This document shows, one piece after another, positions 9,036-63,762 of a DNA stretch of 64,000 nucleotides. The notes beneath the pieces are model-generated. The model had not been told where the DNA came from. It saw only the letters and a list, made by a program, of their open reading frames with translations, and made no database searches. A program made the position numbers and the translations under genes. The stretch is from Malacoraja senta (lineage: Eukaryota), in the NCBI GenBank assembly GCA_038087875.1, contig CM075988.1, forward strand, positions 7,380,001-7,444,000. Direction: 5' to 3'. Each line of letters opens with the position of its first letter. Positions within the stretch are counted from its first letter, which is position 1.

Positions 9036-9132
9036 GTCTGAAGAAGGGTCTCGACCCGAAACGTCACCCATTCCTTCTCTCCAGAGATGCTGCCTGTCCC
9101 GCTGAGTTACTCCAGCATGTTGTGTCTATCTT
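9036..9132 (+). mobile_element. Penelope-derived short unit with hammerhead-like core
   Basis: CTGAAGA-A-GGGT-CTCG-ACCC-GAAA-CGTC at 9038-9065, followed by the same tail as the PLE terminus at 30895-31028. Confidence 0.8.
9038..9068 (+). ncRNA. Minimal type I hammerhead ribozyme motif (best-preserved plus-strand copy)
   Basis: CUGAnGA box, 4-bp helix II, GAAA box, palindromic ACGU in place of helix III, GUC triplet; helix I is only about 2 bp. Confidence 0.6.
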
Positions 9133-9477
9133 CCTTTCTGTTACATCTTTTCTGATCTGATGGAGTGAGAGACATTACTCTTTTGCAGGATTTCTTCTGG
9201 AATTTTGAGGAGGGAGCTTGCTGATGCCACCTGGGAGTGTGGTGATTGGGATCCCAGTTTGGTTCGACAACTTGAAGGGTATTTTGGCAGAGAAATGAGC
9301 AGCACTGGCTATGACTGGAGGAATAAAATTGTCTTAACCTTTAAGTAATGCTGAAAGCTCACACTAAATCATTATTAAAAGTCAGTTCTTTCGGGAGTGA
9401 ACAAACGGCCGTTGTTATTGGGACCAATGTGGTGCAAAATGCTGCCAGAAATGAATTTGGGGCATTACAGGGTTATT

Positions 9478-9890
9478 TCATAAGGTCATAAGTGATAGGC
9501 GTATCAAGTTTACTTCGCCATTCAATCAAGGCTGATCTCTCTCTCCCTCCTAACCCCATTCTCCTGCCTTCTCCCCATAACCTCTGACACCCGTACTAAT
9601 CAAGAAACTATCTATCTCTGCCTTAAATATATCCACTGACTTTGCCTCCACTACTTTCTGTGGCAATGAATTCCACAGATTCACCATCCTCTGACTAAAA
9701 AAAATCCTCCTCATCTCCTTCCTAAAATAATGCCCTTCAATTCTGAGGCTGTGACCTCAAGTCCGAGACTCTCCCCACGAGTGAAAACATCCTCTCCACA
9801 TCCAGTCCATCCAAGCTTTTCACCATTCTATACGTTCCACCTCATTCTTCTAAATTCCAGCAAATATAGGCCCAGTGCCGTCCAATGCCG
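9478..9890 (-). mobile_element. CR1 3' fragment
   Basis: Reverse complement of the CR1 end (ttccacagattcacc, ttctcctgccttctccccataa). Confidence 0.8.
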
Positions 9891-9959
9891 TTATTTATGT
9901 CACTTGAGTGATCTGGAAGCCAGAAACCAAAAGAAACGTGCTTGGACTCATTGATTCCT

Positions 9960-10310
9960 TGAACTGCGAAGTCCAGAATATTTATACAGAGAGTCCAGTT
10001 CAAATCCTGCCGCAAAGTGGAATTTGAAATGAAAATATTACTGATTTTTTCAAAATTTAATTTAATGGTAACCATGAACATATTGCATTTTGTTTTGTAA
10101 AAGCCTGCCTGGTTCAGTAATGTGCTTTGGCGAAGGACGTCTGGTATCTTTACCTAACCTGGCATCTGCGTGACTCCAGATACACAGATGCATTTAATGC
10201 AGAGTTGCGGCCTGAAATGGCTGCACAGATGGGGGCAGTGCAGAGGCTGTCAGTTATGAATGGATAATAAACATTGCCCTTGCCAGTCCTGCCCACATCC
10301 CATGAAAACA
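9960..10310 (+). mobile_element. Old degraded SINE with L2-like tail
   Basis: ttcaaatcc B-box-like motif, ctggttcagtaatgt...gtgactccaga body, tail ccttgccag..gcccacatcccatgaa. Confidence 0.5.
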
Positions 10311-10364
10311 GTCAATGTAAATAAAATGCCAAATTCTTTAAAAAATATTTAAAAGCAAAAAAGT

Positions 10365-10692
10365 GTTATGAACGAGGGTCTGAGCTATAGGGTAGGCTGG
10401 GACTATTCCTTGGAGCGCAGGAGGATGAGCGGTGATCTTATAGAGGTGTATAAAATTATGAGAAGAATAGCTCGGGTAGATCCACAGTCTCTTGCCCAAG
10501 TAGGTAAATCATGAACCAGATGACTTAGATTTAATGTGAAGGGGAAATGATTTAATAGGAATCTAAGGGGTCATGTTTTCAGAGGGATATTGGCCAAGCG
10601 CTGGTAGATGGGACTAGTATAGCTGGGACATGTTGAAGGGTGTGGGCAAGTTGGGCCGAACTGCCTGTTTCCACACTGTATGACTCTGACTC
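10365..10692 (+). mobile_element. CR1 3' fragment
   Basis: ggtgatcttatagaggtgtataaaattatg (GDLIEVYKIM); tail cctgtttccacactgtatgactctgact. Confidence 0.8.
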
Positions 10693-11214
10693 ACAAACTC
10701 AGTAAGCCATTCAAGAGAGAAGTTGGGAAATACTCCTTTCAAAGCCTGGTAGAAGTGTTTGAGTTTGCACACCAACACTAGATTATCGGAATCTTAATTT
10801 GCCATTCGAGAGGATAAGAGGATTCCGAGCCAGTGTTGTTATTGGATTGAGCGCTCGTTCTGCCTGCCTTGCGCTGCCTTTAAGGATTTAAACTGATGTC
10901 TTAGAGAATGACATTTTCTAATGAAACTGAAACCTAGTGACCTGGCATGTCTTTTTGAAATGTCAAATCTCTATCTCTCTGTTCAGGTAAAACTAATGAC
11001 CCTCGTGGCATGATAGGAGGGGGACCAGTGAGTTCTCCTTGTGTGCCAGGACACTTTACAACTGTAACTGATCGAATATTGAGAAAAGAGGCAAGTTCTC
11101 AATTTGGATTTTGGCTGCTTTCTTGGTGGCATTCATAGAGAGTGTGGCGTTTGACTTCATTCTGTCCCTTCAGAGTAGGTTGACTCAATTTTCCAACTTT
11201 GTAACATGGTCTCC

Positions 11215-11650
11215 AATTTAGTTTATTTATTGTCACATGTACCGAGGTACAGTCATGGGGAATAGGAGTAGAATTAGGCTATTTGGCCCATCAAGTCTAC
11301 TCCACCATTCATTCATGGCTGATCTATCTCTCTCTCCTAACCTCATTCTCCTGCCTTCTCCACATAGCCTCTGACACCTGCACTAATCAAAATTTTATCT
11401 ATCTCTGCCTTAAAAATATCCATTGACTTGGCCTCTACAGCCTTCTGTGGCTGTAGCAGTGAAAATCATTTTTGTGGCATGCTATCCAGAAAGACTATAC
11501 ATGATTACCGTCAAGCCATGCACAGTTTACAGATACAGGATAAAAGGAATAATGTTCCGTGCACGATAAATTCCAATAAAGTCCGATTAAATAATAGTCC
11601 GAGGGTCTCCAATGAGGTAGATGGTAGCTCAGGACTGCACTCCTCTGGTG
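11215..11650 (-). mobile_element. Rex1-type 3'UTR fragment with nested CR1 3' fragment (about 11254-11450, minus)
   Basis: tttattgtcacatgtaccgaggtacagt...gaaaa is split by CR1 sequence and resumes at about 11455. Confidence 0.65.
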
Positions 11651-12149: not shown

Positions 12150-12560
12150 AGGTGAGGTTGTGTTTCTCAAGCTTGGGTTTCCCAGGAGAAGTGTAGCAAG
12201 TGTAGGAAACAGTGCCCTAACAGGGGAATAGGGAACGGCTGGACAATTAATGACAAGTGACTGGAAGGTTAAAGGCAGAATCACATTGGGGCTGAATGGA
12301 GGTGTTCTGCAAAGCTGTCGCCCAGTCTGAAGAAGGGTCTCGACCCGTAACGTCACCCGTTCCTTCTCTCCAGAGGTATTGCCTGTCCCGCTGAGTTACT
12401 CCCATATTTGGGTCTATCTTTGGTTTAAACCAGCATCTGCAGTTCCATCCTACATGCCCAGTCTGTTTGGTTTCCTCAGTGTACTAATTGGAAAAAAACA
12501 TGGGCAGATTGTTTGACTTAGAATGGATTTGGGATCCTGGGTGATGGGAAGAAGGTTAAA
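12150..12560 (-). mobile_element. Old Penelope GIY-YIG remnant carrying a younger hammerhead-unit insertion (12330-12455, plus)
   Basis: Minus strand reads ETK..LGDSFAEHLHS across the insertion; gcccagtctg is duplicated at 12320-12329 and 12456-12465. Confidence 0.7.
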
Positions 12561-12640
12561 GGGTAGGTATGTTCCTTTATCCCAGCACTACATCAGGGCA
12601 AATCAATTGTGTGTCATGACATCACGTGATTCCATTTTAG

Positions 12641-15250: not shown

Positions 15251-15856
15251 CTGGTACGATAGAGGAGCAATGAAAGGCTCAAGTAGCACTTGTTAAATTG
15301 TGCCTCACCTTTCCAATTGAACAGTCTGCCAACTCCCCCCCAAAAATGACTCACTCAGACATAAATAACTTTATTTAGTAGCAGTAATTTCTTTCACTTC
15401 TAATAATCCTGTGGTATAAAAATAGCTGTTAATTCCCTTCTGTAGCCTCATGTCAAGTAATGAAGAAAATCCCGCTTACCTCTTTGAGGCAAATGGCAGT
15501 AATAATATTTGGAGCATTTGATTTTCCTGAAGCAATTTTAATCCTTATTAACAAATGCGTATTAATCAGGAAAGAGGAACACATTTCAAACCAACATCTG
15601 CAGTTCTTTCCAACACATTTCTAACATCATTAATCCTGGTCTGAAGTTTAGTTTGCAGGGAAACAAAATATAATCATCTGTGAATTCTCTTAATTCATGC
15701 CCGATGGATATTTTTGCAAAATTGGATATCTAGGTGGGAGCCAATTGCAATGAGCACAATAAATAAATGAGTTTATTCTGGAGTTTACCTTTTGAAAGCT
15801 ACTCTGAATCTTCTTGGCAACTTCCCTATCGGGCAACTGAACCATCCTAGCAAATA

Positions 15857-16770
15857 CAGTGGCTTGCAAAAGTATTCATACCCCTTGAACTTTTCCACAT
15901 TTTGTCACGTTACAACCACAAACGTAAATGTATTTTATTGGGATTTTATGTGAATAAAATCCAGTGCAACCAATTGCCTTCAGAAGTCACCTAATTAGTA
16001 AATAGAGTCCACTTGTGTGTAATCTAATCTCAGTATGAATACAGCTGTTCTGTGAAGGCTTGTTAGAGAACATTAGTGAACAAACAGCATCATGAAGCCC
16101 AAGGAACACACCAGACAGGTCAGGCATAAAGTTGTGGAGAAGTTTAAAGCAGGGTTAGGTTATAAAAAAAATCCCAAGCTTTGAACATCTCACGGAGCAC
16201 TGTTCAATCCATCATCCGAAAATGGAAAGAGTATGGCACAACTGCAAACCTACCAAGACATGGCCGTCCACCTAAACTGACAGGCCGGGCAAGGAGAGCA
16301 TTGATCAGAGAAGCAGCCAAGAGGCCCATGGTAACTCTGGAGGAGCTGCAGAGATCCACAGCTCAGGTGGGAGAATCTGTCCACAGGACAACTATTAGTC
16401 GTGCACTCCACAAATCGGGCCTTGAGCTTGAGCTATTTTGCAAAGAAGAATGGGCAAAAATGTCAGTCTCTAGATGTGCAAAGCTGGTAGAGACATACCC
16501 CAAAAGACTTGCAGCTGTAATTGCAGCGAAAGGTGGTTCTACAAAGTATTGACTCAGGGGGGCTGAATACTTTTGCACGCGATACTTTTCAGTTTTTTAT
16601 TTGTAAAAAAATTTGAAAACCATATATCATTTTCCTTCCACTTCACAATTATGCACCACTTTGTGTTGGTCTATCACATAAAATCCCAATAAAATACATT
16701 TATGTTTGTGGTTGAAATGTGACAAAATGTGGAAAGGTTCAAGGGGTATGAAAACTTTTGCAAGCCACTG
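15857..16770 (+). mobile_element. Internally deleted Tc1-family DNA transposon (Passport/PPTN-like), 914 bp
   Basis: TA TSD at 15855-15856 and 16771-16772; TIRs CAGTGGCTTGCAAAAGT.TTCATACCCCTTGAAC; transposase remnant inside. Confidence 0.95.
16092..16552 (+). pseudogene. Tc1 transposase remnant: paired-like DNA-binding domain joined in frame to the C-terminal tail; DDE domain deleted
   Basis: MKPKEHTRQVRHKVVEKFKAGLGYKK, a 1-nt frameshift in the A-run at 16164-16171, then LNISRSTVQSIIRKWKEYGTTANLPRHGRPPKL...LHKSGL|ELELFCKEEW...KGGSTKY. Confidence 0.92.
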
Positions 16771-17237: not shown

Positions 17238-17577
17238 GATCTTCAGTATGGACAGGGGGCTGATCTTCAGTATGGACAGGGGGCTGATCTTCAGTATGGA
17301 CAGGGGGCTGATCTTCAGTATGGACAGGGGGCTGATCTTCAGTATGGACAGGGGGCTGATCTTCAGTATGGACAGGGGGCTGATCTTCAGTATGGACAGG
17401 GGGCTGATCTTCAGTATGGACAGGGGGCTGATCTTCAGTATGGACAGGGGGCTGATCTTCAGTATGGACAGGGGGCTGATCTTCAGTATGGACAGGGGGC
17501 TGATCTTCAGTATGGACAGGGGGCTGATCTTCAGTATGGACAGGGGGCTGATCTTCAGTATGGACAGGGGGCTGATC
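17238..17577. repeat. Perfect minisatellite: 14 x 24 bp (GATCTTCAGTATGGACAGGGGGCT) plus GATC
   Basis: Direct reading: 336 bp of identical units with no spacers. Confidence 0.97.
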
Positions 17578-17940: not shown

Positions 17941-18115
17941 GAGAAGAGCCAAATGCCATTGGTAAAGATTGGGTGAGCAATAATTTCCACATGTTCCTCT
18001 ACTGTATGATTTAAAGTCAAATTTATCCCTGGTTTTCCGATCAAGAAAGCTGATTTCAGCAAGGTTTGGATGGATAGCGGCATCATTGGGACTATGACTT
18101 TACGTATGCAAGTAT

Positions 18116-18290
18116 CCTGGAGTAAAGTAACTTGGCAGGTCAGGCAGCATCTCTGGAGAACGTGGATAGGTGTTGTTTTGGGTCTGAAGAAGAGTCCCAA
18201 CTGAAAGCATCATCTATCTGTGTTTTCTGGAGATTCTGGAGATACTACAGCACTTTTTTTTGTAAACCAGCAACTATAGTTCCTACTGTC
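18116..18290. mobile_element. Degraded palindromic Penelope-derived unit
   Basis: caggtcaggcagcatctctggaga...gtctgaagaagagtccc...ctgaaa...aaaccagca. Confidence 0.6.
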
Positions 18291-19219: not shown

Positions 19220-19242
19220 AATGGTCCCACAATTGTCCATTG

Positions 19243-19490
19243 TTGGCTGTGGAAGAGGTGACAATGAAGGGATATATGGATGCAAACAGTGGAACTGGCA
19301 GGAAGCTAGGGTGGGGGAGGGGTGGAGAGAGAGGGAATGCAGGGGTTACTTGAAATTGGAGAAATCAACAGTCATATCATTGGGTTGTAAACTGCCCAGG
19401 TAAAATTTGAGGTGCTGTTCCTCCAATTTGCGTGTGGCCTCACTCTGACGGTGGAGGAGGCCCAGGACAGAAAGGTCAGTTTGACAACTG
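19243..19490 (-). mobile_element. Penelope GIY-YIG C-terminal fragment
   Basis: Minus translation DLSVLGLLHRQSEATRKLEEQHLKFYLGSLQPNDMTVDFSNFK parallels 30660-30801. Confidence 0.85.
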
Positions 19491-20289
19491 GGAGATCGTG
19501 TCCCTGAGCAGGTTACTTGCTTGTATTGAATTATAACCATGCAGGTGTGAATTGTGGCCAAGGCTTTGATTGTCAATTCTTGGCTCAGAGACTGTTGTTG
19601 ATTTTTGCCAAGCAAGTTTCACAAGAGGAAACACAAAGTGCTGGAGTAACTCAGTGGGTCGGGCAGTATTTCTGGAGAACATGGATAGGTGAAGTTCCTG
19701 GTCGGGGCTTGTGAGGCATCAAATCTCGTTGGCAATTGCTTTACAATGCTATTGGGAGTGCCCTACAGAGATTTCCTTTCAACTTTTAAAATGTTACTTC
19801 TAACCGCACACTCGTGTGTCTTTTATCAACTGGGATTTCCCCTTCTGCCCTTTATCAGGTCATTAATCGCACAGTTTGTGGCAGATTGATGCATTACCAA
19901 GAGTGGAGTTTATCATACTATTCTGACATTGCTTTAAAGCAAGTGTCACAGACTTGCACCATCTGCCTTTTCAATGTTTGATCTCCAGTTCTATATGTCG
20001 TACTATTTATATGACAATTTGCTGCACTGGTTAGCGTTCTGGGGTTTATTTTTCATTCACTTAAGAGCATTTTCTTTTCCTCTTCCTCGCTATACTTTTA
20101 TTCCATTATTTGTGGTTCTCTGAGTGCTGACATTCTCACAGGCATCTCCCTGCCTCTCTTCATACACTTGTCTTAATCCAGAAACAGATTGAATGACCAC
20201 TTTTTCTTTTGCGTGTGACTTGCTGTTGTATAATCTGCATGGTTGCCATCTCGATACGATGTTTTAGGGGCTTGGATGAAGGCACCTAA

Positions 20290-23369: not shown

Positions 23370-24160
23370 TCAGGGAATAGTGCAAACAGAAACAAGCTCT
23401 ATGATGCACAAAATCTGTGCCAGCCACGATGCAATTAAACTAATCCTAGAGATACAAAGACTGTCCTGTTGCAGGGTTTTGACCCAAAATGTCAACCACG
23501 CCCTTCTCCCAACAAAAATTGCTCAACTTCCGCCAGCAAATAGTTTGTTGCTTAAACGTTGTCCATATCCTTCCATTTGCCTGCATGTGGTCCGTATCCT
23601 TCCATCCCCTGCCTGTTTGTACACCTGCTTAAATGGTCGTTAAATGTTGCTAACTTATCCGTCCCCAACATCTCCCCAGGCCACATATGCTACCCTGTTC
23701 ATGTAAACAAAAAGGCCTTGCCACTCTTCTTTCAACTGTCCCCTCTCACCTTAAATCTATGCCCTATGGCAATGGATGTTTCCACCTTTGGGAAAACGAT
23801 TCTGACATTTACCCCGTCCATAGCTCTCATAGTTTTATGTCATTCTATCAGGTCTTCGTTCAGCCTCTGGGGTTCCAGAAAAAAATGATCCAGGTTTGTC
23901 TCTCCTCATAGCTAATACTCATCGAGAAAACCACCTGGTGAACCTCTTTTGTGTCGTCTCCAATTGCCACATCCTTCCTGTAATATGGTGACCAGCACCG
24001 CACACAATACTCCAAATGTGGTCGAACTGAGGTCTTATACAGAGACAACATTCCTTTTAAACTCAATGCCCTGACCGATGAAGGCAGGCATACCATATGC
24101 CTTCTTTATTATCCTAACTACTTGTGTAGAGCAATGGACTTGGACCCAAAGATCCCTCTG
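23370..24160 (-). mobile_element. Degraded CR1 RT/3' fragment
   Basis: LYKTSVRPHLEYCVRCWSPYYRKDV (ORF 23860-24096). Confidence 0.85.
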
Positions 24161-26068: not shown

Positions 26069-27129
26069 TAACACTCATTATAATGGACCATAGGGGGAGG
26101 GGGGGGGGGAATTATGTCTGTTATTGCCGATTGACCAGTATAACCAAGTAAGGGGGGGGGGGGGGGTAGGGTAAATATGTACAGTATTGGAAAAACAGCC
26201 AATAAACATAGACAAACCAAGTCACACGATAAAGAGTTAGTTTTTTCACACCATATTCTTCACATACACACTACCGTAGCACCATTCCCTAACTTGTAGA
26301 ACTTAGTTCTAATTTCTGGCATACACTTAAACTGACACTTGTTCATTCTACCCACCACTCTCTCTGGAAGCCAAGGTCAATCACTACAATGATAATTTAA
26401 AGCAGAAAAGTGAGTAAATACAAAACGGGGTGAACACACAACACGTGCGGCCACGATGACGCAGCGGTAAAGTTACTGTCTTTCAGCACTTGCAGTGCCG
26501 GAGACCCGGGTTCGATCCCAACTACCGGTGCTGTCTGTATGGAGTTTGTACATTCTCAATATACACAAATTGTATATGGCAGTTACAATAGGTTTTACTG
26601 AAAAGGCAGAATGCTTCCTGAAAATACTTAGCCCTGATTCCCACAGTGAGACTGAGGGTTGGATTTAAATTCAGTAGCTTGCACTTGTTTCCCAAGCAAC
26701 GTCCCACTGGATGCATCTGGTTCTATCCTTGGAAGATTGCTTGGAGCAACTAACAAAGTTTGACATGCCATCCCAAAAATTACTCATTTATTTTTCCTCT
26801 AATTTCTGTTGATTAACCTGTTCCTCAGTCCGGGTATTATTTATCCACAATCCCACGGAACCCTAATCTAGTGTAACTGACTCTAGTGTGGGCCCCATAT
26901 CAAATTCCTTCTGTGACTCTAAATATACCATAACTATCAGCTTCCCTTCGCATGCCTGGCCCGCGGCGTTACTCCAACATTTTGTGGCCAGCTCCCAAGT
27001 TGGATGCAGAATTTACAGAAATATGTTCACGAAAATTATAGGATTTTAAACTATTTTCTTTATCTCCCCACAACACGGAAATCTCTAACCGAGATGGGGT
27101 GGTGGGTATATGGAATGAGCTGATGTGGA

Positions 27130-27343: not shown

Positions 27344-28396
27344 GAAAGAGCTACCAGAGGAAGTATTTGAAGCAACTACTATAACAGCATTTAAAAGCAT
27401 TTAACAGGTACATGGATAAAAATGTTTAGACGGATATAGGCCAAACACGGGCAGGTGGGTCTGGTGTGGATGGGGCATCATGAAGAAGTTGGGCCGAAGG
27501 AGTCTGAAGAAGGGTCTCGACCCAAAACTTTGCCTATTTGCTTCGCTCCATAGATGCTGCCTCACCCGCTGAGTTTCTCCAGCATTGACCTTTGGCCGAA
27601 GGTCCTGTTATCGTGCTGTACGACTCTATAAATTGTAATAAATAGGCTCGGCAACTCGTGTGGCATGTGAAAAATGGCCAACGTTTCACTTCAAAGACCT
27701 TTTGGAAAAGGCAATGGAAGTGAAGGGGAGGGGAGGGTGATGCAGATGAGGTGGAAGGGGAGGAGATGTATGGGGGCAATTACAAAGCTGCATAACCGGC
27801 TGATAACGGGACAGGTAAAGATATAAAATAATAAATATTGATGGAGCTCGCAATCGTAACGTGTATTCATTACAGCACCTGTTGTTTAAACCAGTGGTTA
27901 ATGCCAAACTTGGGATTGTGTCCAAAAGATTGAAGTGCCTGATGTTAACATCCTGTTTCCAAACTGGTTGCAAAAATAGCCTTGTATCAAAGACATTCCA
28001 TGGAATAAATATTTGGTCTTCGTCATTGGTCTTCAGTTTGTTTGAAGATTCACTGATTCTCCCTCGAACATCTCCAATAGAATATTTTCTTCAAGGTGGA
28101 GTACAGTACACGTTGGAGTCTTGAGGGTCATCTTTCTAAAGGAATGATATTTCCATGGATCTTAAGTCGACTAGTTGAGATCTTTTGATTGAATTCTGTA
28201 AATGTTTGTATTCTACCTTTCGTCAATGACCTGTGCTTTGACATATTTTTTGTAAATAAGCTGTTCATCTCGTTCAAAGAGAATTGGTTGAACTGAAAAG
28301 AGATACACTTCATCATTTGCCAGTAAGTGACTTGCCTTAATAGATTGTTTGTTCAGACCTAGACAGGAGTAACTAAGATCTGGTCAGGATGCTTTC

Positions 28397-28694: not shown

Positions 28695-28864
28695 GGAGGA
28701 CCCTGAAGTCGAGAGGCCAAACAGGGCCATGGTTTAATTTTCCGACAATGATGTCCAAGATCCCTAAACCCTCTCTCAATTCTCAGCAATAATTAAATTG
28801 TACTGTTTAAGAAAGAACTGCAGATGCTGGTAAAATCGAAGGTAGACACAAAATGCTGGAGTAA

Positions 28865-29089
28865 AGGGCCTGTCCCACTTGGGCGTCATTTGCGCGTCAT
28901 TTATGCGACATCATTTACGCGTCATGACGCACACATGATGCATGCATGGCATGCATTACGCGCGCATGGTGGGTGGTGACGTAGGCAGAGATGCGCGGTC
29001 GCATGCGGCACCCCAGGATTTTGTGATTCACAAAATCTTCGCTCGCCATCTGCGTGACGCGCAAATGACGCCCAAGTGAGACAGGCCCA
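28865..29089. mobile_element. Non-autonomous PIF/Harbinger-type MITE 2 (225 bp) inserted in a Penelope-derived unit (28805-29165, minus)
   Basis: TAA TSD at 28862-28864 and 29090-29092; TIR GGGCCTGTCCCACTTGGGCGTCATTTGCGCGTCA; removing it restores gctggagtaactc. Confidence 0.9.
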
Positions 29090-29867
29090 TAACTCTGCGG
29101 GTGAGGCAGCATCGATGGAGAGAAGGAATTGGCGACATTTTGGGTCGAGACCCTTCTTCAGACTGTACTGATCTCCACTGATGATCCAACTCTAATTCCA
29201 CTGTTGGTTAACCATCCTATGGCTTAATGCCTTAAGGTCACCATTCCGCCACAGCCAAACACTTTGAATAATGTGACTGGGGATAAACACATGTTAGTTT
29301 TTGTTCTGTTAATTAGCTGTTTAGCTACTTCCAACAAAATAATTCTGGAGACACGACTGGCTATCTTTGCATGGATATCAGTCACTTTGCTGTGTTGCTG
29401 CTGGAGTGTTTTTTTTAGTCTTCCTGAGTAAACAGATAAACAGAAATTTGCAGTTGAAGTCCAAATAATGCTCAGAACTGTCCCAAGATAGACTTTCCAG
29501 TCCTGGCAATCGATGCAAATCAAAAATATGCAGATGCTGAAACACTGAAGTAAAAAGAGAAAATGCTTGAATAAAAAGCCAAGGTCTGTGGAAAGAGAAT
29601 CAAAGTTAATGTTGCAGGTTGAAGAACAACCTTCCCCATATATATTGCGATTAGCTGTTGTTCTGTGTGTGAATGTTTTTGGTGCTTTGTTGGTCCCACA
29701 GTTAAGTCAAGGATAAAAGGAAGATTGTGACACTGCAAGTTACCACTCTTTCCAGATTAAGAAAATGAAGTTTTCCTCCAACGCCACCTCCAACGTGACC
29801 CCACCACTCGCCACATCTTCCCATCTGCCCCCCTGTCTGCCTTCCGCAAAGACTGCTCCCTCCGCAA

Positions 29868-30334
29868 AGGGCCTGTCCCACGGGCATGCGACTCCATGCG
29901 GCAAGCGCGACCTAACCGCAAGCGCGGGCCAAGCGGGGGCCGCGCGGAGGTCGAGTGATCCCCGTACAGGGCAGGTCCCACCAGCATGTGGCTGCATGCG
30001 GCAAGCGCTACCAAATCGGAAGCGGGGGCCGCGCGGAGGTCGAGTGACGTCAAGACGGTGCGTACGGCGGAGAGGCGGTGCGCACGGCCGTTGAGGCGGT
30101 GCGCACAGCCGTCGATGCGGCTCGATGGCCTCGATGCGGCTGCGGGGCGGCAGGCCGTTGCCGCACGGAATTTTTGAACAGTGTCAGTTTTTCGGAGCCC
30201 CGCGCGATGTCGGGACCAGCTCCGCACAACTCCATATGGCTCCGGCGATCGAAGTGGGACCGGCCCCGCGCGGCCCCCGCTTGCGGTTAGGTCACGCTTG
30301 CCGCATGGAGTCGCATGCCCGTGGGACAGGCCCA
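29868..30334. mobile_element. Non-autonomous PIF/Harbinger-type MITE 3 (467 bp) nested in the Penelope element
   Basis: TIRs of about 55 bp, GGGCCTGTCCCACGGGCATGCGACTCCATGCGGCAAGCG.GACCTAACCGCAAGCG; flanks CAA/TAA; removal restores the PLE frame AFRKDCSLRNSLV. Confidence 0.9.
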
Positions 30335-30801
30335 TAACTCCCTTGTCAATTCTTCCCTTCACTCCCGCTCCACCCCCTCCCCGGGCACTTTCCCTTGCAA
30401 CCGCAAGAGATGCTACACTTGTCGCTTTACCCCCCCCCCTCGACTCCATTCAAGGACCCAAGCAGTCGTTCCAGGTGCGACAGAGGTTCACCTGCACCTC
30501 CTCCAACCTCATCTATTGCATCCGCTGCTCTAGATGTCAGCTGATCTATATCGGTGAGTCCAAGCGGAGGCTTGGCGATCGTTTCGCCGAACACCTTCGC
30601 TCGGTCCGCAATAACCAACCTGACCTCCCGGTGGCTCAGCACTTCAACTCCCCCTCCCATTCCGTATCCGAACTCTCTGTCCTGGGCCTCCTCCACGGCC
30701 AGAGTGAGCAACACCGGAAATTGGAGGAACAGCACCTCATATTCCGCTTGGGTAGTCTGTATCCTGGTGGCATGAACATTGAATTCTCACAATTCCGTTA
30801 A
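30335..30801 (+). pseudogene. Penelope GIY-YIG endonuclease domain; one frameshift in the C-run 30429-30439
   Basis: PGTFPCNRKRCYTC, then FTCTSSNLIYCIRCSRCQLIYIGESKRRLGDRFAEH...VAQHFN...RKLEEQHLIFRLGSLYPGGMN. Confidence 0.93.
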
Positions 30802-31115
30802 CCCTTGCTGTCTCCTCCCCCTCCTACCTCTCCCTCAGCCCTCGGGCTCCTCCTCCTTTTTCCTTTCTTCTCCCCGCCTCCCCCCACCCCCTATCAGTCT
30901 GAAGAAGGGTTTTGGCCCGAAACGTTGCCTATCTCCTTCACTCCATAGATGCTGTTGCACCCGCTGAGTTTCTCCAGCATTTTCGTGTACCTTTGATTTT
31001 CCAGCATCTGCAGTTCCTTCTTTAATACGAAAATGAAGTGCCTGCAGCTGTGATCGTCAGTCACAAGGGTTCTAATACGGGGTAAGCTGCATACTGAGAG
31101 AATTTCATTCCTACA

Positions 31116-31567: not shown

Positions 31568-31720
31568 GTGTAGGAAGGAACTGCAGATGGTGGTTTACAC
31601 CGAAGATAGACACAAAATGCTGGGGTAACTCAGCGCGACAGGCAGCATCTCCGGGGAGAAGGAATGTGTGACGTTTCGGGTCGAGATCCTTCTTCAGACC
31701 TGAAGGGTCTCAACCCAAAC
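31568..31720 (-). mobile_element. Penelope-derived hammerhead unit with a short inverted copy
   Basis: gtgtaggaaggaactgcagatg...gtgacgtttcgggtcgagatccttcttcagac|ctgaagggtctcaaccc. Confidence 0.8.
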
Positions 31721-32057
31721 ATCATAGGCCTCTCCAACGTTTTCTTAATTTTGTTCATTGAGTTAACCACTGCCTTGATGACACATGAGTTTCCAGAATT
31801 TCTGAAAGCATGCTATGCATTCAAAGATGCATGGTAGAATTACTGGACTGAATCTCCAGTGGGTAAAGAAATGATGGGAAAATCCATTCAAAGAAACCAG
31901 TTATTGACAACTAATCAATATTGGGGATATCCTACTGGGATTCTTTCATGGACTCCATCATTCCAATGATTAACGACACAGATCATCTTTAGGCTGATAG
32001 TAGTTATTTTTGTGTCCCTTGGAATTTTTTGTTAATAGATCCATTTAAACAAAACTT

Positions 32058-32285
32058 GTGTAGGAAGGAACTGCAGATGCTGATTTACACTGAAGATGGA
32101 CACACCATGCTGGAGTAACTCAGTGGGTTAGGCCGCACCTCTAAGAATAGGTGCCTTTTCAGGTCGAGACCCTTAGACTATTAAGGAAGGGTCTGAAAAA
32201 GGGTCTCGACCTGAAACGTCACCTATTCCTTTTCTCCAGAGGTGCTGCCTGACCGGCTGAGTTACTCCAGCATTTTGTGTCTTTC
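32058..32285. mobile_element. Palindromic Penelope-derived unit
   Basis: atgctggagtaactcag (left arm) and ctgagttactccagcattttgtgtc (right arm). Confidence 0.8.
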
Positions 32286-33139
32286 TATTTTAGTCTGGTC
32301 GTCATTCTTTTGCATCCCTTGGAAAGTTTTGTTAATAGATCCATATAAATAAAAGTTGCTTTTATTGTTGATGAAGGTGTCCGTGGATGAAATTGCTGAA
32401 GGCAAGAATATTTATGCAGTTGTTTGGACTGTGTATTCAAACAGCTGAAAGCAATCTCCATGTTTTGGGTTGAGATCTATTATTTCTTGAAGGCCATTAA
32501 CCTTTGAGAACTGCATTTAGGGCAGGACCAACACTAAGCATCGTAACACTCACAATGCAGAGAAATTAAGCCTCTGGTGAGAAAAGATGATGATTAATGT
32601 CTTGTTCTATACCTCTTGGAGTTCACAGCAAGGTCACAACGTTATAGCCCATGCAGGTCGATCCAGGCTACTGTCCCAAGATTATTAATTCCAAAATGAA
32701 GCATGTCATTTTGAAGTTGGTTAGGTCTCACTTAAATCAATGTGAACAGATTGTTGGATTTCTCTCGGTTTTACGTGTTATTAGATTGTAGGTGTGTATT
32801 ATTAAATATTTGCAATAGGGTCAGAAATGCTAGTTTTAGTTCAGAAAATTGAAACCACCCAGACAGGCTTGAAGATTTTGTTTTTTTTAACTTAAGCCTC
32901 AAGTAATTTGATCGAGGTCTAAAATAATGAAGGGATTATATGCTGTGCTCACTCATACATTATTTCAAGCAGATAGCTTGTGGAAGACCAATGCATTATG
33001 TGGATGATTACATTGTGAGTCCTGAGGAGCAGGCCAGAAGATATGGTGGCAAGTCCCAGCCTGATTTTTGTCATCCTGTCTGGATCCCTGTCCGAAAGAA
33101 AATGCTATCTGTCCTCTTGTCTCCCTATTAATAAGTAAT

Positions 33140-39110: not shown

Positions 39111-40159
39111 TTTACTTGATAAGATCACGCCCAGAAGCCTGGCAGTGTGAGACACCCCAGCACTACATGGTATTCCACTGCACCACCCAATAGTTTCATT
39201 ATTGTTTTAATGGATATAACAATTAGTGATATTTATACCACTGTTAATAGTGATAAATATGTAGCTGCATCATTCCATTAAGAATAGGAGAAGAAAGCAT
39301 GGACAGGCAACATCTCGGGAGAGAAGGAATGGGTGATATTTTGGGTCGCGACCCTTCTTCAGACAGGTTGTGGGAATTGGCTGATCAGTCTCCAGATATA
39401 TTTCCTAATCGCTCGTAAATTGGGTTGCATTCCTGATGCATCATGTCAAAGGAGCACGACACTGGTACGGACTTAGCCGAGCCACTTTCCACCAGAACCT
39501 CTGTACTACGGCTGCAGTATATTAACGCACTTAATATGATGCAAGCTGCCCTGGAGACCGGCTTCCTTTGTGTTGATCTCTCTGATCTTTCCACGCAGAG
39601 TCCAGAATACATAATGAATCCTGACTTCCAGATGCCATGCAGTTGTTTTCTCTTGGTGCTCTGGTGTTTATAGACTTAGATCCCACAATAAAAATGAGGC
39701 CGCTTCTGTCATTTTTTTTCTTTTTGCCTCCTGATTCCTTCTCTGCACTTGGGATAATACAGATCCAATTAAATTGGTAATTCAATGTTTGGTAATTTAA
39801 GACTTGTTATTTTTGCCTATCATCACCCTAATTGATAATAAAAAATAGCACAGCATCCCACCCATATCTCTGGAAATTTGGATTGACTGTTGTACTGTTG
39901 TAGTGTATTTAGAATGAGGAAAATAGTCCCCATCTTGTATATATTTTAAAAATGTGGAATCCACTCATAACTCTTGTAACAGTTTTCTCAGTGAAATTCC
40001 TCTTTTGAAATTGGTTCTGATTTCCACGGAGTTTACCATAATCTACAACAAAATGTGCGGCAAATCATGTCGTTATTTTGCGCAATACTTTGATGCAAAT
40101 GTTTATGGTCTAAGAGTCTACACCTATTTGAACACTGTCATGCTAGTCTTAAAGAAAAA

Positions 40160-40365
40160 TACAGTGCTGGAGTAACTGAGCAGGTCAGGCAGCATCCCTG
40201 GAGAACTTGGAAAGGTGACACTTTGTGTCAGGACCCTTATGAAGAATTATATACAATTCTGAAGAAGGGTCCCGACCTGAAACATCATCCATCTATGTCC
40301 TCCAGAGATGCTGCCTGGCCCGCTGAGTTTCTTCATCTTTATAAACCAGCATCTGTTCCTTGTTT
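40160..40365. mobile_element. Palindromic Penelope-derived unit
   Basis: gtgctggagtaactgagcaggtcaggcagcatc...ctgaagaagggtcccgacctgaaac...gatgctgcctggcccgctgagtt. Confidence 0.75.
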
Positions 40366-41289: not shown

Positions 41290-42780
41290 CAACTCAGCCA
41301 CAATCTAATTCCATCCAATTATGACTGGGACCTACTTCATGCAAGAGGCTTAGATGGGCCAGAATTAGTTTGGTGCATCCAATAGAGTTTTTTTGAAACA
41401 GTATGTGGATATTCTAACTCAAGGGACCATTCTGGACCTTGTATAGGGAAACAAACCTGGCTGGGTGACTACCATTTCAATGGGAGATAACTTCAATGGG
41501 AATAGTGACCAAAAGTTTTAAGATAGTTATGAATAAGGATAGATCTGGTCCTTAGGGGGAAGTACTAAACTGGGGAGGCAACAATGATAAACAGGAGGTT
41601 TGACCTGAAGCTGTTAAATGGATAAGTTCGCATCTCACATGTGGGTGTTATTTAAATAGCAGCTAATCAGAGTTCAGGACCAGTGTGTTCTAGTTAGGGG
41701 GAGGGTCAAGATGGCAAAGTAGGAGAACCTTGGATGATGAGAGAGGTTATGAGTATTGGTCAAAATGAAGAGGGGAGCATATGTGTGCTTTAGGAAGATG
41801 AACAGACAAGGCATTTGAGAAATATAAAGAAAGCAGGAAAGAACAAACAGACAATGAGGAAGGCCAGAAAGGCCTATGAAATGTCATTGGCATCAGATGA
41901 AAGAAAATCCCAAATTATGCGTTAATAACAAGGGAGGGGGGGGGGGTAACTAGGGTAGGGTAGGACTACACAAGGGTAAAGGGGGGAATTAATGCTTGGA
42001 GTGAGAGGATGTAATTGAGTTTCTAAATGAGTACTTTGCATCTGTATTCACCAAGGAGCAGGACATTGAGGGTAGTGAAATCAGGGGGAGAATGCTAAAA
42101 TATAGGGTCAGGCATCATCTATAGAGGGAATAGGTAGGCAATCTTTTGGGTCAGGAATTTTTTTTCGTCTGAAAAAGGGTTTTGACCTGAAGCGTCGCCT
42201 ATCCACTCCCTCAACAGATGCTGTTTGACCTGCTGAGTTACTCCAGCACCTTGTGTTTTGGATGAAAATGTAGAAGGATTTGTTAGTCAGTTTGCAGACA
42301 ACACAAAAATTGGTGAAGTTGCTAATAGTGAAGAAGGCTCGTCAAAGGATACAGAAGGATCAATTAGTTACAGATATGGGTGGAGAGATGGCAGATGGAG
42401 TATAATCTGGGAATGTGTGAGGTGTTGCATTTGGGTGGTCAATTGTAAGGGGAGGTACAGTTAATGACAGAACCACCAATGGCATTAATGTACAGAGGGA
42501 TCTTGGGTTCCAAATCCATAGCTCATTGAAAGTAGACTGGTAAAGTGGACTGGTGCATGGTATGCTTGCCTTCATTAGTGGGGGCATTGTGTATAAGAGT
42601 CAGGAAGTCATGTTACAGATTTATAAAGCTGTTGATTGAGCTACATTTGGAGTGTTTGTGTGCATTTCTGGTTGTCCTAGTGCAGGATGGATGTGGGTGC
42701 TTTGGAGAGCGTACCAAATAATTTTTACAGATTGGACACAAATTAGATGAAATTAGATATAAAGAGAGGTTGGATAAACT
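41290..42780 (+). mobile_element. Old internally deleted CR1 (endonuclease end and RT pieces), interrupted by a palindromic PLE unit at about 42105-42258
   Basis: Remnants of ILDLV..N, GNSD, VLNEYFASVFTKE and FADNTKIG. Confidence 0.75.
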
Positions 42781-42789: not shown

Positions 42790-42902
42790 CCACTGCAGAT
42801 GTTGGTTGCTACACAAAAGGGCACAAAGTGCAGGAGTAACTCAGCAGTTCAGGCAGTATCCCTGGTAGGTGACGTTTCGGGTCATGACCCTTCTTCAGAC
42901 TG
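42790..42902 (-). mobile_element. Penelope-derived hammerhead unit
   Basis: Minus strand gtctgaagaagggtcatgacccgaaacgtcacc: intact core with a different loop II. Confidence 0.8.
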
Positions 42903-43055
42903 ATCTTGATGCAAGGTCAACACACATCTTTACCAGACTACTTGGCAGGAGTGACTCTTTCTGAGTTCATCAGTGTACATTGCTGCTCTGTATATCCTCT
43001 CCTCCTGTTCCCTTTTGGCTCCCTCTGTACTTTTCCACTTCTCCTTGCTCCTCGA

Positions 43056-43275
43056 AAATAGACACAAAATGCTGGAGTAACACAGCGGGACAGGCAGCAT
43101 CTCTGGACAGAAGGAATGGGTGACATTTCGGTTCGAGACCCTTCTTCAGACTGGAGAAGAGTCTCGACTCAAAACGTCACCCTTTCCTTCTCTCCAGAGA
43201 TGCTGCCTGTCCCGCTGAGTTACTCCAGCATTTTGTGTCTATTTTTGTATTAATCCAGCATCTGCAGTTCTTTCC
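43056..43275. mobile_element. Well-preserved palindromic Penelope-derived unit (arms of about 95 bp)
   Basis: aaatagacacaaaatgctggagtaa...cttcttcagac|tggagaagagtctcgact...ttactccagcattttgtgtctattt. Confidence 0.9.
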
Positions 43276-43380
43276 TCCACTCTCCTTTCTCCTCATTCTC
43301 TTTCTCTTCGTTCGCCAAAAGTGCTGAAGAGAATTGCAGTGCCTAATGGCTGCGATCAATAAACTCTATGCCAATGAAGG

Positions 43381-51016: not shown

Positions 51017-51786
51017 TGTTAATCCTGGCTAAATTGGAGCAGCTAGGACTTCAAAATGGGGTTAGGTTTCAGGGTTGCTGGGAGATTTGGTCAAATTGGA
51101 ATTACTCTCTGCAGAGCTGGGACAAGTTGCGAAGAGGTGTCAGAGTGTCTGGAGCTTAGATACAATTTGCAAGGAAAGAATGGGAAGATCTGCAAGCCCT
51201 GTCAATCTGGTGTAAAATGCATAGAATGGATTGGATGGCTGCAAACCAGACACACCTTGTAAATAGTTGTAAATAATGTTGCAGAGTCTGACTTTGCCAA
51301 GTGTTGCTTGGATGAGGTGGTGAGCCTTTTCTGGGTTTTCTGTAAATCAGGGTAAATGTTTCCAAGTTGACTTCCTCTCGCGGTCCATTTTGAGTACAAT
51401 GTATTGAACTTTTGTATCTTTGGGTTAGGGGACTGCCTGTTATGTATGAGGTTCATCGATATCTGTAATTGGGTTATTGAGAGACCACCCCCATGTGGTT
51501 CAGCCCCTCGAGGTCCCGGGACATATAAAAGTCCGCGATCACGAGGCGCAATGTCGATCTTCTAGAAGAGCGCTCGGGACTGCGTGAACTTCTGGACTGC
51601 CTCTGTCTGAGCGAGACCTAGAGGGCTTGAACAGGCAGACGCGAGGATCGAACCCGCGGTGGGATAGGTACAGTGTGTGATCTGTGACCGGCTTTTGGTA
51701 AAATAAAATTCAGTTGTTTCAAGTGCTTGATTCAGTGTTTTTACTGAAACTAGACTGGGGGGAAGCTTAGAAATGAGCAATTATCA
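51017..51786 (+). repeat. 3' LTR (770 bp)
   Basis: tgttaatcctggct...gcaattatca followed by TSD aagg. Confidence 0.97.
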
Positions 51787-53017: not shown

Positions 53018-53364
53018 TATAATTTAAAAAAACACATTATGTCAGTTATCCGCCTCCTAAGGAAATTTATTTCCTGATAAGGCACTTGAGCAAAGAATGA
53101 CACAAAGTGCTGGAGTAACAGTAGCATCACTTAAGCAACCAGAACAACAACAGAAATACACACCTTTGATTGCCGCTGGGCTGTGCTAGTTTTACTGCAC
53201 ATGCCAGGGAGGTTATTTGAGATGACAATAACATATCTACACTTACTGGATAACTGAATTAAAAAAATAAAGAGACACTCAGCTGGTAACGCAGAATCAA
53301 TGGTCAGAGAAGCAATTCATGGTTTCAGTCTGGGTCTCTCTTCATATAGTTTTTGCGATAACTT

Positions 53365-53557
53365 GTGTCGGAAGGAACTGCAAATGCTGGTTTAAACTGA
53401 AGATAGACACAAAATGCTGGAGTAACTCAGCGGGAGAGGCAGCTTCTCTGGATCGCTTCAGACCTGAAGAAGGGTCTTGACCCAAAATGTCACCCATTCC
53501 TTCTATCCAGTGATGCTGCCTGTCCCGCTGTGTTACTCCAGCATTTTGTGTCTATCT
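53365..53557. mobile_element. Palindromic Penelope-derived unit
   Basis: gatagacacaaaatgctggagtaac ... ctgaagaagggtcttgacccaaaatgtc ... gttactccagcattttgtgtctatc. Confidence 0.85.
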
Positions 53558-59430: not shown

Positions 59431-59830
59431 TTAGTTTAGTTTAGAGATACAGCCTTTCGACTCCCCTCGAGCCAACCAGTGATCCCCGTATACCAGCACT
59501 ATCCTACACACTAGACAATTTTCCTTTTTTTAACCGAAGCCAATTGACCTACAAAGTTGTACGTCTTTAGAGTGTGGAAGGAAACCGGAGCGCCTGGAGA
59601 AAACCCACGTAGGTCATGGGAGAACGTACAAACTCCATACAGACAGCACACGTAGTCAGGGCCGAACCTGGGTCTCCAGCGCTGTAAGGCAACAACTCTA
59701 CCACTGCGGAGGTAGACAAAAATGCTGGAGAAACTCAGCGAGTGAGGCAGCATCTATGGAGCGAAGGAAATAGGCAACGTTTCGGGTCAAAACCCTTCTT
59801 CAGACTCTACCGCTGCGCCACCGTGCTGGC
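59431..59830 (-). mobile_element. HE1-type SINE split by a 95-bp Penelope-derived hammerhead unit (59709-59803, minus)
   Basis: actctacc(a/g)ctgcg duplicated at 59695-59708 and 59804-59817. Confidence 0.88.
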
Positions 59831-60677: not shown

Positions 60678-60990
60678 TAGTTTAAAAATACAGCATGGAG
60701 ACAGGCCCTTCAGCCCTCCTTGTCCACGACGACCATTGGTCACCCCATGCGCCTGTTCTATGCCATCCCACTTTCACATCCTGCACCCCAGGTGCAATTT
60801 ACAGAGGCCAATTTACCTACAAACATGTACGTCTTTGTATTGTGGGAGGAAACCGGAGCACCCGCAGAAAACCCACGCAGTCATAGGGGGAATGTACAAA
60901 CTCCGTACAGACCACACCTGTAGCCGGGATCCAAGCTGGGTATCTGGCACCATGAGGCAGCAGCTCTACCCGCTGCACCACTCGGCCGCA
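60678..60990 (-). mobile_element. HE1-type SINE
   Basis: gggaggaaaccggagcacccgcagaaaaccca core. Confidence 0.8.
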
Positions 60991-61109
60991 GCTGTGTTGT
61001 CCATAGAACTGGTTTGGAGGGATAACGGTGACCAGTCCAGTGTATTAACTTGAAACACACCATCTTCTCATAAAATAATCATTTTGTTATCTGAGATAGC
61101 TTCCTTCTT

Positions 61110-61378
61110 TAGACTTTTACTTTAGACAACAGAAACGGGTCTTTTGCCCCGCTGAGTTTGCGCTGCCCAGTGATCACCCCGTACACTAACACTATCCTAC
61201 ACACCAGGGACAACTAACATTTTTTACCGAAGCCAATTAACCTGCAAACCTGTACGTCCTTGGAGTGTGAGAGGAAACCGGAGCACTCAGAGAAAACCCA
61301 CATGGTCACAGGGAGAAAGTACAAACTTTGTGCAGCCAGTACCCGTGGTCGGGATCGAACCCAGGTCTGTGCCGCCCT
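61110..61378 (-). mobile_element. HE1-type SINE
   Basis: Core and tail as in the other copies. Confidence 0.8.
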
Positions 61379-61952
61379 TCTGTGTGCTCAGGTGTTAATA
61401 ACTTCACTTTTTTTTTGCAGGATTTGATTTGTACGCTTCTCTTTTTATTCTGACATTGAGTTCAAAGCAGTGCAGACGTATACCTGGAAATTCAGCTGTG
61501 GAAAAACAGCTGTTTAAACACTCGACTGGCTGAGTATTGCTGTTGAGAAGTGCATTACTCATCATATTGGATTCAAATCGACTTGGCAGCAGCGGCTCGT
61601 GTGTAACATTTAAAGCCCAGAATAATTTTGTAAATTATGCCTTAGCACATCGTGCAACTCTGGGTTTTGAATGTCTCAGTTTTCTATCTCACTATCCCAG
61701 GCAGCAGGATCTGTAAACCTCTCGGATTAACTGGGTAAGTGGACTGTCTTAATGGAAGGTCTCCATCTTTATTCTCCCCCTTTTCCCCCCACTTGCCCCG
61801 CACCTCCAGGTGCATCATAAGGGAGTAGGGGAGGAAACCGGAGCACCTGGAGGAAACCCACATGGTCACAGGGAGAATGTGCAAACTCCACACAGACAGC
61901 AGACTGCCATTAGAAGAAAACAAAGAGGATGCATTTATAGTTTAGGTCGGTG

Positions 61953-62420
61953 AGTTTAGTTTATTGTCATGTATTGCGAGGTACGGTGAAAAGCCTTTTT
62001 TGTTGAGTGCTGGCAAGTCAGCAGAAAGACAATACATGATTACAATCAAGCCGTCCACAGTGTATAGATACGGAATAAAGGGAATAACATTTAGTGCAAG
62101 ATCAATTCCAGAAGAGCCCGATTAAAGATAGCTTGAGGGTCCCAATGTGGTAGATGATAGATCTGGACTGCTCTCTAGTTGGTGATAGGATGGTTCAGTT
62201 GCTTGATAACAGCTGGGTAGAAGCTGTCTGTATGGAGTTTGCATGTCCTCCCTGTGACCGCGTAGGCTTTCTTCGGGTGCTCCGGTTTCCACCCACATTC
62301 CAAAGACGTGCAGGCTTGTAATTGTAACTTGCCCCTAGTGTGTAGGATAGTGCTAGTGTACAGGGGTGATCACTGGTCAGCGCAGACTCGGTGGGCTGAA
62401 AGGCCTGTTTCCGTGCTGTA
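61953..62420. mobile_element. Rex1-type 3' fragment (minus, 61953-62218) followed by a headless HE1-type SINE (plus, 62224-62420)
   Basis: tttattgtcatg...ggttcagttgcttgataacagctgggtagaa (minus: YPAVIKQLN), then SINE core. Confidence 0.75.
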
Positions 62421-62444
62421 GCTCGAAGATTTAATCCACTGTTA

Positions 62445-62692
62445 AGGGCCTGTCCCACTTGCCGATTTTATCGCCCACTGCCGGCGTCATTAACTGACGT
62501 ATCAGGGCCGCCGAAAGATTTTGAACATTTCAAAATCCAGCGGTGACGAAAAAAAATGTTGCGACACTTGAGGTAACACTGCGCGTCAATACGACGTCAC
62601 GCCGGATCACGCCGCGACTTTTATGGTGACCTGATACGTCAGTCAATGATGCCGGCAGTCACCGATAAAAACCGCCAAGTAGGACAGGCCCT
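62445..62692. mobile_element. Non-autonomous PIF/Harbinger-type MITE 4 (248 bp)
   Basis: TTA TSD at 62442-62444 and 62693-62695; imperfect TIRs of about 60 bp beginning AGGGCCTGTCC.ACTTG.CG.TTTT. Confidence 0.9.
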
Positions 62693-63762
62693 TTACCTTG
62701 GAAAATAAAATCTGAAGATCCCCTAAAAACATCCTATCCATTCCTTCCACAGATGCTGCCTGCCCCGCAGAGTTACTCCAGCACTTTGTGTTTTGCCTTG
62801 CAAAGTAAAGTTGAACTGGAGGCACTTTTCACGATGAAGATTGGGAGCTGTGGGTGGAATGGTGGCAGCAGTGATGCAGGCATTATAGTTCATGGTTTAG
62901 GGAGTGGAACTGCAGTGTTGTGATCATATGTGGCAGAACAACAGCCGTCACACAGCCATTTCCACAGTCAGATTAAATCCAAGCCGAGGAGGTAATTTCC
63001 ATCAGATCAGAATTAAATGGTTCTGTGTAAACAGGTCTTTAGAGAGTCTGGGAGCTGTGTTGATTTGATAATGATTCTATTAAAACGAGATGCTGTGGGC
63101 ACTGGCAGTGGCACCTCGCTGCTTTGCTATACGAATGTAAACTTTGAAAGCGTTTGGGTGGCTGCGGGAGGCAAAGATAATTGGCCGGGCATTTGATTGG
63201 GTGATTAGGCCGAGGCTATGATGGTGATTCAATTTGCATTATTTATTCATATAGTGTCAAATCGCTGCTTTTAGACACGATGCATTTTACATTAGTCGTA
63301 TAATGAAGTGAAATTAAATGAAATGTATGCTTATATTTGAAATGTGTTAACATTTGAAGCATGAACACTATAATTACCAGTGGCATTTGTGTCTTTTGAA
63401 AGCACATCTACTAGTAATTCTGGCTTGCAGCCACCCTTCGGGGGGGGGGGGGGGGGGGCAATGGGGTGGTTGGGGGGAGGCAGTATTTGTGGTGTGGATG
63501 CGGGGATTGCGGGTGAAAACGATGGCAGTCGTATTTTGTTTGCAAAGTCAAGAATCAGTCTCGTGCTAATCTCGCGCTATCAATGAGTAGCAGTGTTTTA
63601 AACGTCAAACCAGCATCTACGCTTGCATCTAGGCCATTTGATGCCATTTGACATTTGATGCCATGTTCTCGGCCTTGCCTCTCCAAGGGCAAGGCACTAC
63701 ATTTATATTGTATGTAGGATACACAAAGAACTGCAGATGCTGGAAACTTACGTCAAACACTT

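Follow-up and report, generated by a model that had tools for sequence, protein, structure and literature searches.

The window analysed here, a 64,000-nt stretch of Malacoraja senta DNA (assembly GCA_038087875.1, contig CM075988.1), holds a dense family of short repeats, and sequence comparison supports their identification as the pseudo-long terminal repeat (pLTR) ends of a GIY-YIG Penelope-like element (PLE) that carries a minimal type I hammerhead motif. These repeats, referred to here as stubs, are quite probably short insertions made by the protein of Neptune-type PLEs through the full mechanism proposed below. Their fixed 5' boundary is the unusual feature of the family and the one that merits follow-up. 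All counts are restricted to the window and to its DNA sequence.

Census of the repeats and their parent element

The family was delimited with an nhmmer profile built on 12 clear copies of the unit, which was scanned against the window and the reversed window. At E≤4.5e-4, 29 arms were found in the window and none in the reversed window, and BLAST added three further short pieces of the unit. The total comes to about 32 arms in 25 stretches, representing 24 insertions (a later insertion divides one of them) and 2735 bp or 4.3% of the window, with 23 stub insertions as opposed to two fragments of the PLE body. An earlier note on this DNA had listed 19 positions for the family, and the unit is present at all 19, several being minus-strand copies or head-to-head pairs. 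A search with the peptide of a 43-residue open frame of the unit gave no match, and no coding claim is made for this frame because it is not kept across the subgroups.

The earlier note also held that the unit ends a GIY-YIG element. This was borne out: an 11-bp target duplication at 29761 and 31029 bounds a 5'-truncated PLE (Table 1), whose body is interrupted by an unrelated palindromic insertion at about 29867-30334. The best homologues of its predicted endonuclease come from Leucoraja erinacea with 75-89% identity, followed by those of rays and sharks, and homologue E-values reach down to 1e-51. Scanning four longer homologues revealed a GIY-YIG domain in all four and a reverse transcriptase (RT) domain in three; homologues with RT plus GIY-YIG show 55-68% identity, and the copy in the window is truncated before the RT core. 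A CX2-5CxxC linker before the endonuclease is described for Neptune and Nematis (Craig et al., 2021, PMC8557442). In a zebra-shark homologue, one of the 42 and found by its endonuclease, the frame continues across a stretch encoded by pyrimidines and into a peptide consistent with this hammerhead motif at the same place.

The fixed 5' boundary

For the analysis of the 5' ends, the 26 arms that reach the predicted cut site or beyond were counted and their starts read by hand, while six arms without this region were excluded. Twenty of the 26 arms start within 7 nt, from -4 to +3 of the first base, five start further in, and one runs on into the PLE body. Counted per insertion, the boundary is shared by 16 of 19; binomial values computed for the arms do not allow for the non-independence of paired arms. 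The earlier note held that many units begin with one particular motif; the exact motif occurs just three times (9036, 42900 and 59805), but the same 20 core-reaching arms start at it or adjoining it. At least five subgroups share the boundary, which argues for a mechanism and not for one master copy. A check proposed earlier, the position of the 5' ends relative to the GUC cut site, turned out negative: at most one of the 26 arms (322) starts there, and cleavage therefore did not make the copies. Instead, the copies span the cut site, which indicates an uncleaved RNA template.

The PLE copy has a CAG at the boundary, preceded by a tract of 86% pyrimidines with 57 nt free of AG. Only four of the 8265 AG sites in the window, the boundary AG included, are equally acceptor-like, and the pyrimidine tract is kept in no stub. 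In Penelope of D. virilis, the 5' end of helix I is where the intron ends (Cervera, 2014), and the start site lies 46 nt before the 75-bp intron, well upstream of the hammerhead (Schostak, 2008). The most likely cause of the boundary, as far as the sequence can tell, is an arrest on unspliced RNA at an occupied predicted acceptor, although a transcription start or a local palindrome could look alike. When published minimal hammerheads were inspected by eye for an upstream YAG, about 20 of 44 had one, a proportion too close to chance to be used.

Insertion structure

The 3' ends of the stubs lie mostly at unit position ~90-100 or ~130, and two lie near 65. Seven insertions are arranged head-to-head: five combine a tailed with a tail-less arm, one a tailed arm with a short stub, one lacks a tail, and none has two tails. 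The pair centres vary and include a 1-nt centre, a 3-nt overlap and fillers. The similarity of partner arms was also considered and proved uninformative.

Target duplications of 7-18 bp flank a number of the insertions, with a score of at least 9 at 5 of 17 loci compared to 1.3% of 150 random pairs; two further loci, with duplications of 7 and 11 bp, reach 7 and 8. In several cases the duplication includes the first bases of the element, so that the exact start is blurred; this suggests joining via microhomology. The earlier note had overlooked the head-to-head arrangement, the restriction of the tail to one arm, the target duplications and the constant 5' boundary.

Some details of single insertions can be added. 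The arms at 39301 and 42105 stop at unit position 64-65, a possible third start site. At 9027-9035 and 32179-32190, the 5' end of the unit is duplicated or partly duplicated, suggesting re-priming after the cDNA end was reached. The pair at 32058-32288 is flanked by a diverged 66-bp direct duplication (46/66) at 31993-32058 and 32293-32358, far longer than the other target duplications.

The hammerhead motif and its decay

At its start the unit has a helix I of 2 bp and then CUGAAGA with an extra A; a helix II of 4 bp, GAAA and the palindrome ACGU come next, and C or U stands at the predicted cut. This agrees with the consensus for minimal type I hammerheads in the supplementary material of Cervera (2014), where other cases of a 2-bp helix I occur. 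An Rfam scan of the window gave no hammerhead match at E≤10 and 16 weak matches, the best of which, MIR2118, merely reflects the hairpin at 43056. Among 17 aligned arms, helix II is paired in 95.6% of cells and helix I in 85.3%, compared to 6-49% in slid controls. Covariation in the helices of the same arms was not significant, with 23-36 of 500 shuffles reaching three of the measures and 118 and 354 reaching the other two. The loop variation described in the earlier note is partly a difference between subgroups and partly CpG decay.

In a post hoc contrast between five subgroups drawn by hand, core and stems differ at 0 of 21 non-CpG sites compared to 15 of 56 downstream (p=0.008), and loop and cut-site flank differ at 3 of 4. 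This invariance gives modest support for selection on the hammerhead in the source elements. A first version of the contrast (p=1e-4) was set aside, as it confounded subgroup divergence with decay.

The inserted copies present a different picture. Every hammerhead feature is complete in only 4 of 27 aligned arms, the PLE copy included, the core is kept in 7 of the 16 arms with an ungapped core, and G12, which lies within a CpG, is changed in 11 of 23 arms. Within subgroups, 12 of 213 non-CpG cells have decayed in the core and 104 of 1160 downstream (p=0.14), giving no sign of selection on the inserted copies. None of the 21 rows reported by Tandem Repeats Finder (TRF) for the window is a tandem of the repeat unit. 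The predicted dimer of helix II plus III (about -13 kcal/mol) is less stable than other dimer folds (-19 to -28 kcal/mol), and the four head-to-head pairs that were folded give predicted hairpins (-97 to -162 kcal/mol) in which the core is buried. On their own, minimal motifs from the literature are inactive, and their dimers are weak (Cervera, 2014); the minimal hammerhead of the anole cleaves only with its protein (Frangieh et al., 2024, PMC11167929). Judged by these sequences and folds, the stub copies are not working ribozymes, and the hammerhead is a passenger in them. The earlier description of the repeats as ribozyme-bearing PLE termini can be retained for the pLTR ends and their motif and is not supported for a working ribozyme, given the four intact arms, the lack of tandem dimers in the window and the buried core in the hairpins of the pairs.

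Cleavage at a NUH just upstream of the boundary was also considered and dropped on inspection, because the required helix III pair is absent. A motif scan gave no match in viral contigs and two in metagenome contigs, which are uninformative on core conservation because they were selected by the pattern itself. One of these contigs (L001, 501-540, minus strand) carries a related motif in which the helix II stem is the same, helix I may have 3 bp and the core is directly preceded by CAG; no PLE protein match was found within 500 bp of it.

Proposed mechanism

In the explanation we favour, the protein would start reverse transcription internally, at two fixed points on its RNA that lie about 90-100 and about 130 nt downstream from where the hammerhead begins; two such points were shown in vitro for the anole PLE and are suggested here by the two 3'-end classes. 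The protein would copy through the uncleaved hammerhead, consistent with copies that span the cut site, and would usually stop at or very near the AG that immediately precedes the core, no more than a few bases away. Most likely it would be arrested there because the RNA is unspliced and its splice acceptor is bound by protein; otherwise the RNA may have a true 5' end at this point. The cDNA end would then be joined to the target, often via microhomology, leaving the duplications of 7-18 bp, and where both target strands were primed, the joining of two cDNA ends would give a head-to-head pair with the tail on one arm. In the literature, the tail is explained by two internal start sites and both target strands are extended (Frangieh et al., 2024, PMC11167929), and an inverted copy with a one-sided tail has been drawn for PLEs (Craig et al., 2021, PMC8557442). 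Once inserted, the copies would decay neutrally. Selection would act on the hammerhead in the source elements, where it probably works as a protein-assisted dimer ribozyme, whereas in the stubs it is a passenger.

A wider proposal is tentative, and we incline somewhat to doubt it: that in PLEs of cartilaginous fish the copying of unspliced RNA is cut short at a 3' splice site abutting the hammerhead, shedding stubs of the size of short interspersed elements (SINEs) with both ends fixed, one by the acceptor and the other by the internal start sites, at a rate some ten or more times that of longer copies. If true, PLE replication would have left in the stubs a very large natural record that links intron retention, uncleaved ribozyme and two-strand priming, and some of them might be remobilised in trans.

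Several observations weigh against the favoured explanation. The window contains no full-length element or RT domain, and the sequence upstream of the boundary is known from a single PLE copy. Two pairs (31699 and 53460) have an identical centre, which would also be expected from a master palindrome, and partner arms are not nearest neighbours (ranks 2-22), though they have subgroup sites in common. The duplication score is below 9 at 12 of 17 loci. In addition, the conservation contrast, which depends on subgroups drawn by hand, loses significance when CpG sites are included (p=0.25-0.27), and positions 66-90 show about the same conservation as the core (3/24, p=0.24).

Alternative explanations

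The sharp 5' end and the excess of stubs over PLE-body fragments could also result from a self-amplifying non-autonomous element, in which transcription starts at the boundary and any stub is transcribed, binds the PLE protein in trans and is recopied in a SINE-like manner with fixed ends. The two copies that duplicate their own 5' end would be expected from run-off and re-priming, and the boundary sequence TCAGTC resembles an initiator. Penelope does have an internal promoter (Schostak, 2008), but the D. virilis start site lies upstream of the intron and hammerhead, as described above. Moreover, the pyrimidine tract would be left unexplained, and the boundary common to at least five subgroups also counts against this explanation, which we regard as unlikely. 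Somewhat less probable still is that the palindrome TCAG-N-CTGA at the boundary sets the 5' end by fold-back or annealing and builds the inverted arm by self-priming. Three pairs are centred on this palindrome, palindromes at inverted junctions have been published, and self-priming on an antisense template has been proposed (Arkhipova et al., 2013, PMC3846280). However, the boundary is common to nine single copies without an inverted arm, four pairs show fillers or other joints, and the two arms finish at different start sites.

The remaining alternatives are far less probable. A retrozyme-like cycle, in which the ribozyme cuts dimers and the resulting RNA circles are reverse transcribed, shares the motif class, and retrozymes derive from pLTRs (Li et al., 2026, bioRxiv 10.64898/2026.07.22.740005), yet it fits poorly with the missing tandem units, the arms that hardly ever start at the cut site, the few intact motifs and the weak helix II plus III dimer, and we consider it very improbable. 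Of similarly slight probability is a tRNA-like RNA polymerase III promoter on the opposite strand, by which the stubs would be true SINEs read antisense. Copy 9036 has motifs resembling the A and B boxes, 53 nt apart with one mismatch each; this was found post hoc, and 21 of 2000 shuffles are as good. Seven of the 27 arms have the imperfect box pair, each box of the PLE copy contains two mismatches, and the B-like motif is helix II read backwards. ARAGORN found no tRNA, and there is no A/B box pair on the sense strand of the unit. Finally, long inverted arms and target duplications recall miniature inverted-repeat transposable elements (MITEs) moved by a DNA transposase, but the ends of the pairs are unequal, the duplication length is variable, single arms are common and the sequence is continuous with the PLE end. 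This reading is already largely excluded by the end asymmetry, and we regard it as the least credible of all.

Comparison with known systems and significance

By their sequence, the stubs belong to the truncated and inverted pLTR insertions of endonuclease-positive (EN+) PLEs with a minimal hammerhead, which is a largely known kind. As in published minimal type I hammerheads of PLEs, CUGANGA plus an extra nucleotide, G10.1-C11.1, GAAA and a palindromic 15.2-16.2 are present and a helix III loop is absent, while the helices II (4 bp) and I (2 bp) here are among the shorter ones. The published motifs occur as thousands of single dispersed copies tied to truncated PLEs, with some close pairs on opposite strands, and the same arrangement is found here; a fixed 5' boundary is not described for them, and the part of their alignment compared contains no cartilaginous fish. 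Two features of EN+ PLEs, a C-terminal GIY-YIG domain and an optional tail at one end with an inverted copy, are found here, with one tail in 6 of 7 pairs and two in none. The CX2-5CxxC linker of Neptune, shared with Nematis, is present as well. A head-to-head copy, a tail of 30-40 nt at one end, microhomology joints and solo pLTRs are likewise known from inverted pLTR insertions of EN+ PLEs, whose target duplications measure about 8-10 bp (Arkhipova et al., 2013, PMC3846280; Craig et al., 2021, PMC8557442). In contrast to these, nearly all insertions here consist of the pLTR end only, are 60-230 bp long and are very dense.

The Poseidon element PAc of Anolis is similar in its two internal RT start sites that define the tail, the cutting and extension of both target strands and the unprocessed RNA template (Frangieh et al., 2024, PMC11167929). 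PAc belongs to the Poseidon clade and has an open reading frame (ORF) that starts from stem II, whereas the linker here is of the Neptune type and an ORF start was not found in the PLE copy of the window. Non-LTR retrozymes are also short non-coding, pLTR-related repeats with type I hammerheads (Cervera et al., 2020, PMC7229834; Li et al., 2026, bioRxiv 10.64898/2026.07.22.740005), but they are defined by at least two tandem units, each with a complete hammerhead, of which none occurs here. In the literature covered, outside which lie most subscription papers, Repbase and Dfam, we found neither this family described in cartilaginous fish nor any report of 5' ends at an acceptor.

The link between hammerheads and PLEs and the inverted-plus-tail pattern are already published, so that the family itself is a gain for annotation: it makes up about 4% of the window and is easily mislabelled as SINE or MITE. 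The useful part is mechanistic. The stubs are in line with the in vitro finding that the template is RNA that has not been cleaved, and the fixed boundary at an acceptor-like site offers a testable handle on intron retention in PLEs and on the formation of inverted copies. The head-to-head pairs are potential sources of long double-stranded RNA.

Table 1. Parent Penelope-like element and stubs in the window (TD, target duplication; UTR, untranslated region; a point marks head-to-head pairs).
Feature	Position	Strand	Evidence
5'-truncated Neptune-type PLE: end of RT/linker region, GIY-YIG endonuclease, 3' UTR, pLTR with tail	29772..31028	+	tblastn with shark/ray PLE proteins: matches 29782-29877, 30336-30798
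C-x4-C-x2-C linker motif (Neptune/Nematis type)	30396..30422	+	present in 35/42 homologues
Putative GIY-YIG endonuclease domain	30442..30798	+	Pfam E 6e-4, under curated cut-off; 42 homologues
Pyrimidine tract closing with CAG (30895-30897), predicted 3' splice acceptor, coincides with stub 5' boundary	30800..30897	+	86% C+T over 30800-30893
Minimal type I hammerhead motif of PLE copy; predicted cut after 30926	30897..30928	+	2-bp helix I, CUGAAGA, extra A, 4-bp helix II, GAAA, palindromic ACGU
Tail, optional 30-40 nt 3' extension, start approximate	30995..31028	+	alignments; Craig et al., 2021; Frangieh et al., 2024
Old tailed stub, start near predicted cut site	322..422	-	BLAST, alignment
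Tail-less stub, intact motif, 9-nt duplication of own 5' end	9027..9132	+	
Tailed stub, broken core, 10-bp TD overlapping element start	12325..12454	+	
Tail-only fragment	15582..15616	+	BLAST
Pair, 3-nt overlap joint, tail on plus arm only	18113..18285	.	
Tail-less stub, start inside helix II	19628..19705	-	nhmmer
Old diverged stub	23463..23548	+	nhmmer E 2.7e-5
Fragment without core	26953..26990	+	nhmmer
Tail-less stub, broken core, 12-bp TD (11/12)	27501..27586	+	
Tailed stub split by palindromic insertion (28865-29089), 7-bp TD	28805..29163	-	
Pair: full tailed minus arm and short inverted stub	31568..31725	.	
Pair, 12-nt filler, tail on minus arm only	32058..32288	.	
Short stub, end at unit position 64	39301..39364	-	nhmmer
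Pair with filler, tail on plus arm only	40153..40358	.	
Pair, both arms without tail	42105..42256	.	
Stub, intact motif, most of tail; 4-nt match to PLE upstream sequence	42792..42904	-	
Pair, 1-nt centre, tail on plus arm only, 14-bp TD (13/14)	43056..43280	.	
Fragment without core	53093..53119	-	BLAST, nhmmer
Very diverged copy	53272..53342	-	nhmmer E 4.5e-4
Pair, tail on minus arm only, 11-bp TD (10/11)	53365..53557	.	
Tail-less stub, intact motif, 14-bp TD (13/14)	59709..59805	-	
Diverged tail-less stub, 18-bp TD (15/18)	62710..62791	+	
Tail-only fragment	63725..63746	-	BLAST

Other features of the window

The stubs at 27502, 59709 and 12325 are apparently inserted within other repeats; the stub at 59709 separates the A box from the B box of a tRNA-like SINE head. 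The palindromic insertion in the PLE body (about 29867-30334) and that at 28865-29089, which lies inside a stub, are two members of one MITE-like, putatively Harbinger-like family; their termini match, and their target is a TAA-like sequence of 3 bp. A second PLE endonuclease fragment at about 19230-19500 on the minus strand is about 75% like the first and is cut off by a SINE-like repeat before any hammerhead.

Gag-like ORFs, the first with a zinc knuckle, are located at 46984-48452 (plus strand) between two related segments, 43526-43939 and 51202-51561, perhaps long terminal repeats. Fragments resembling the RT of long interspersed elements and a Tc1/mariner fragment were seen at 4498-6784, 7532-8704, 16166-16552 and 37722-38702, the last of which was named by eye and has no Pfam match. 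A perfect 24-bp tandem repeat with 14.2 copies occupies 17238-17577.

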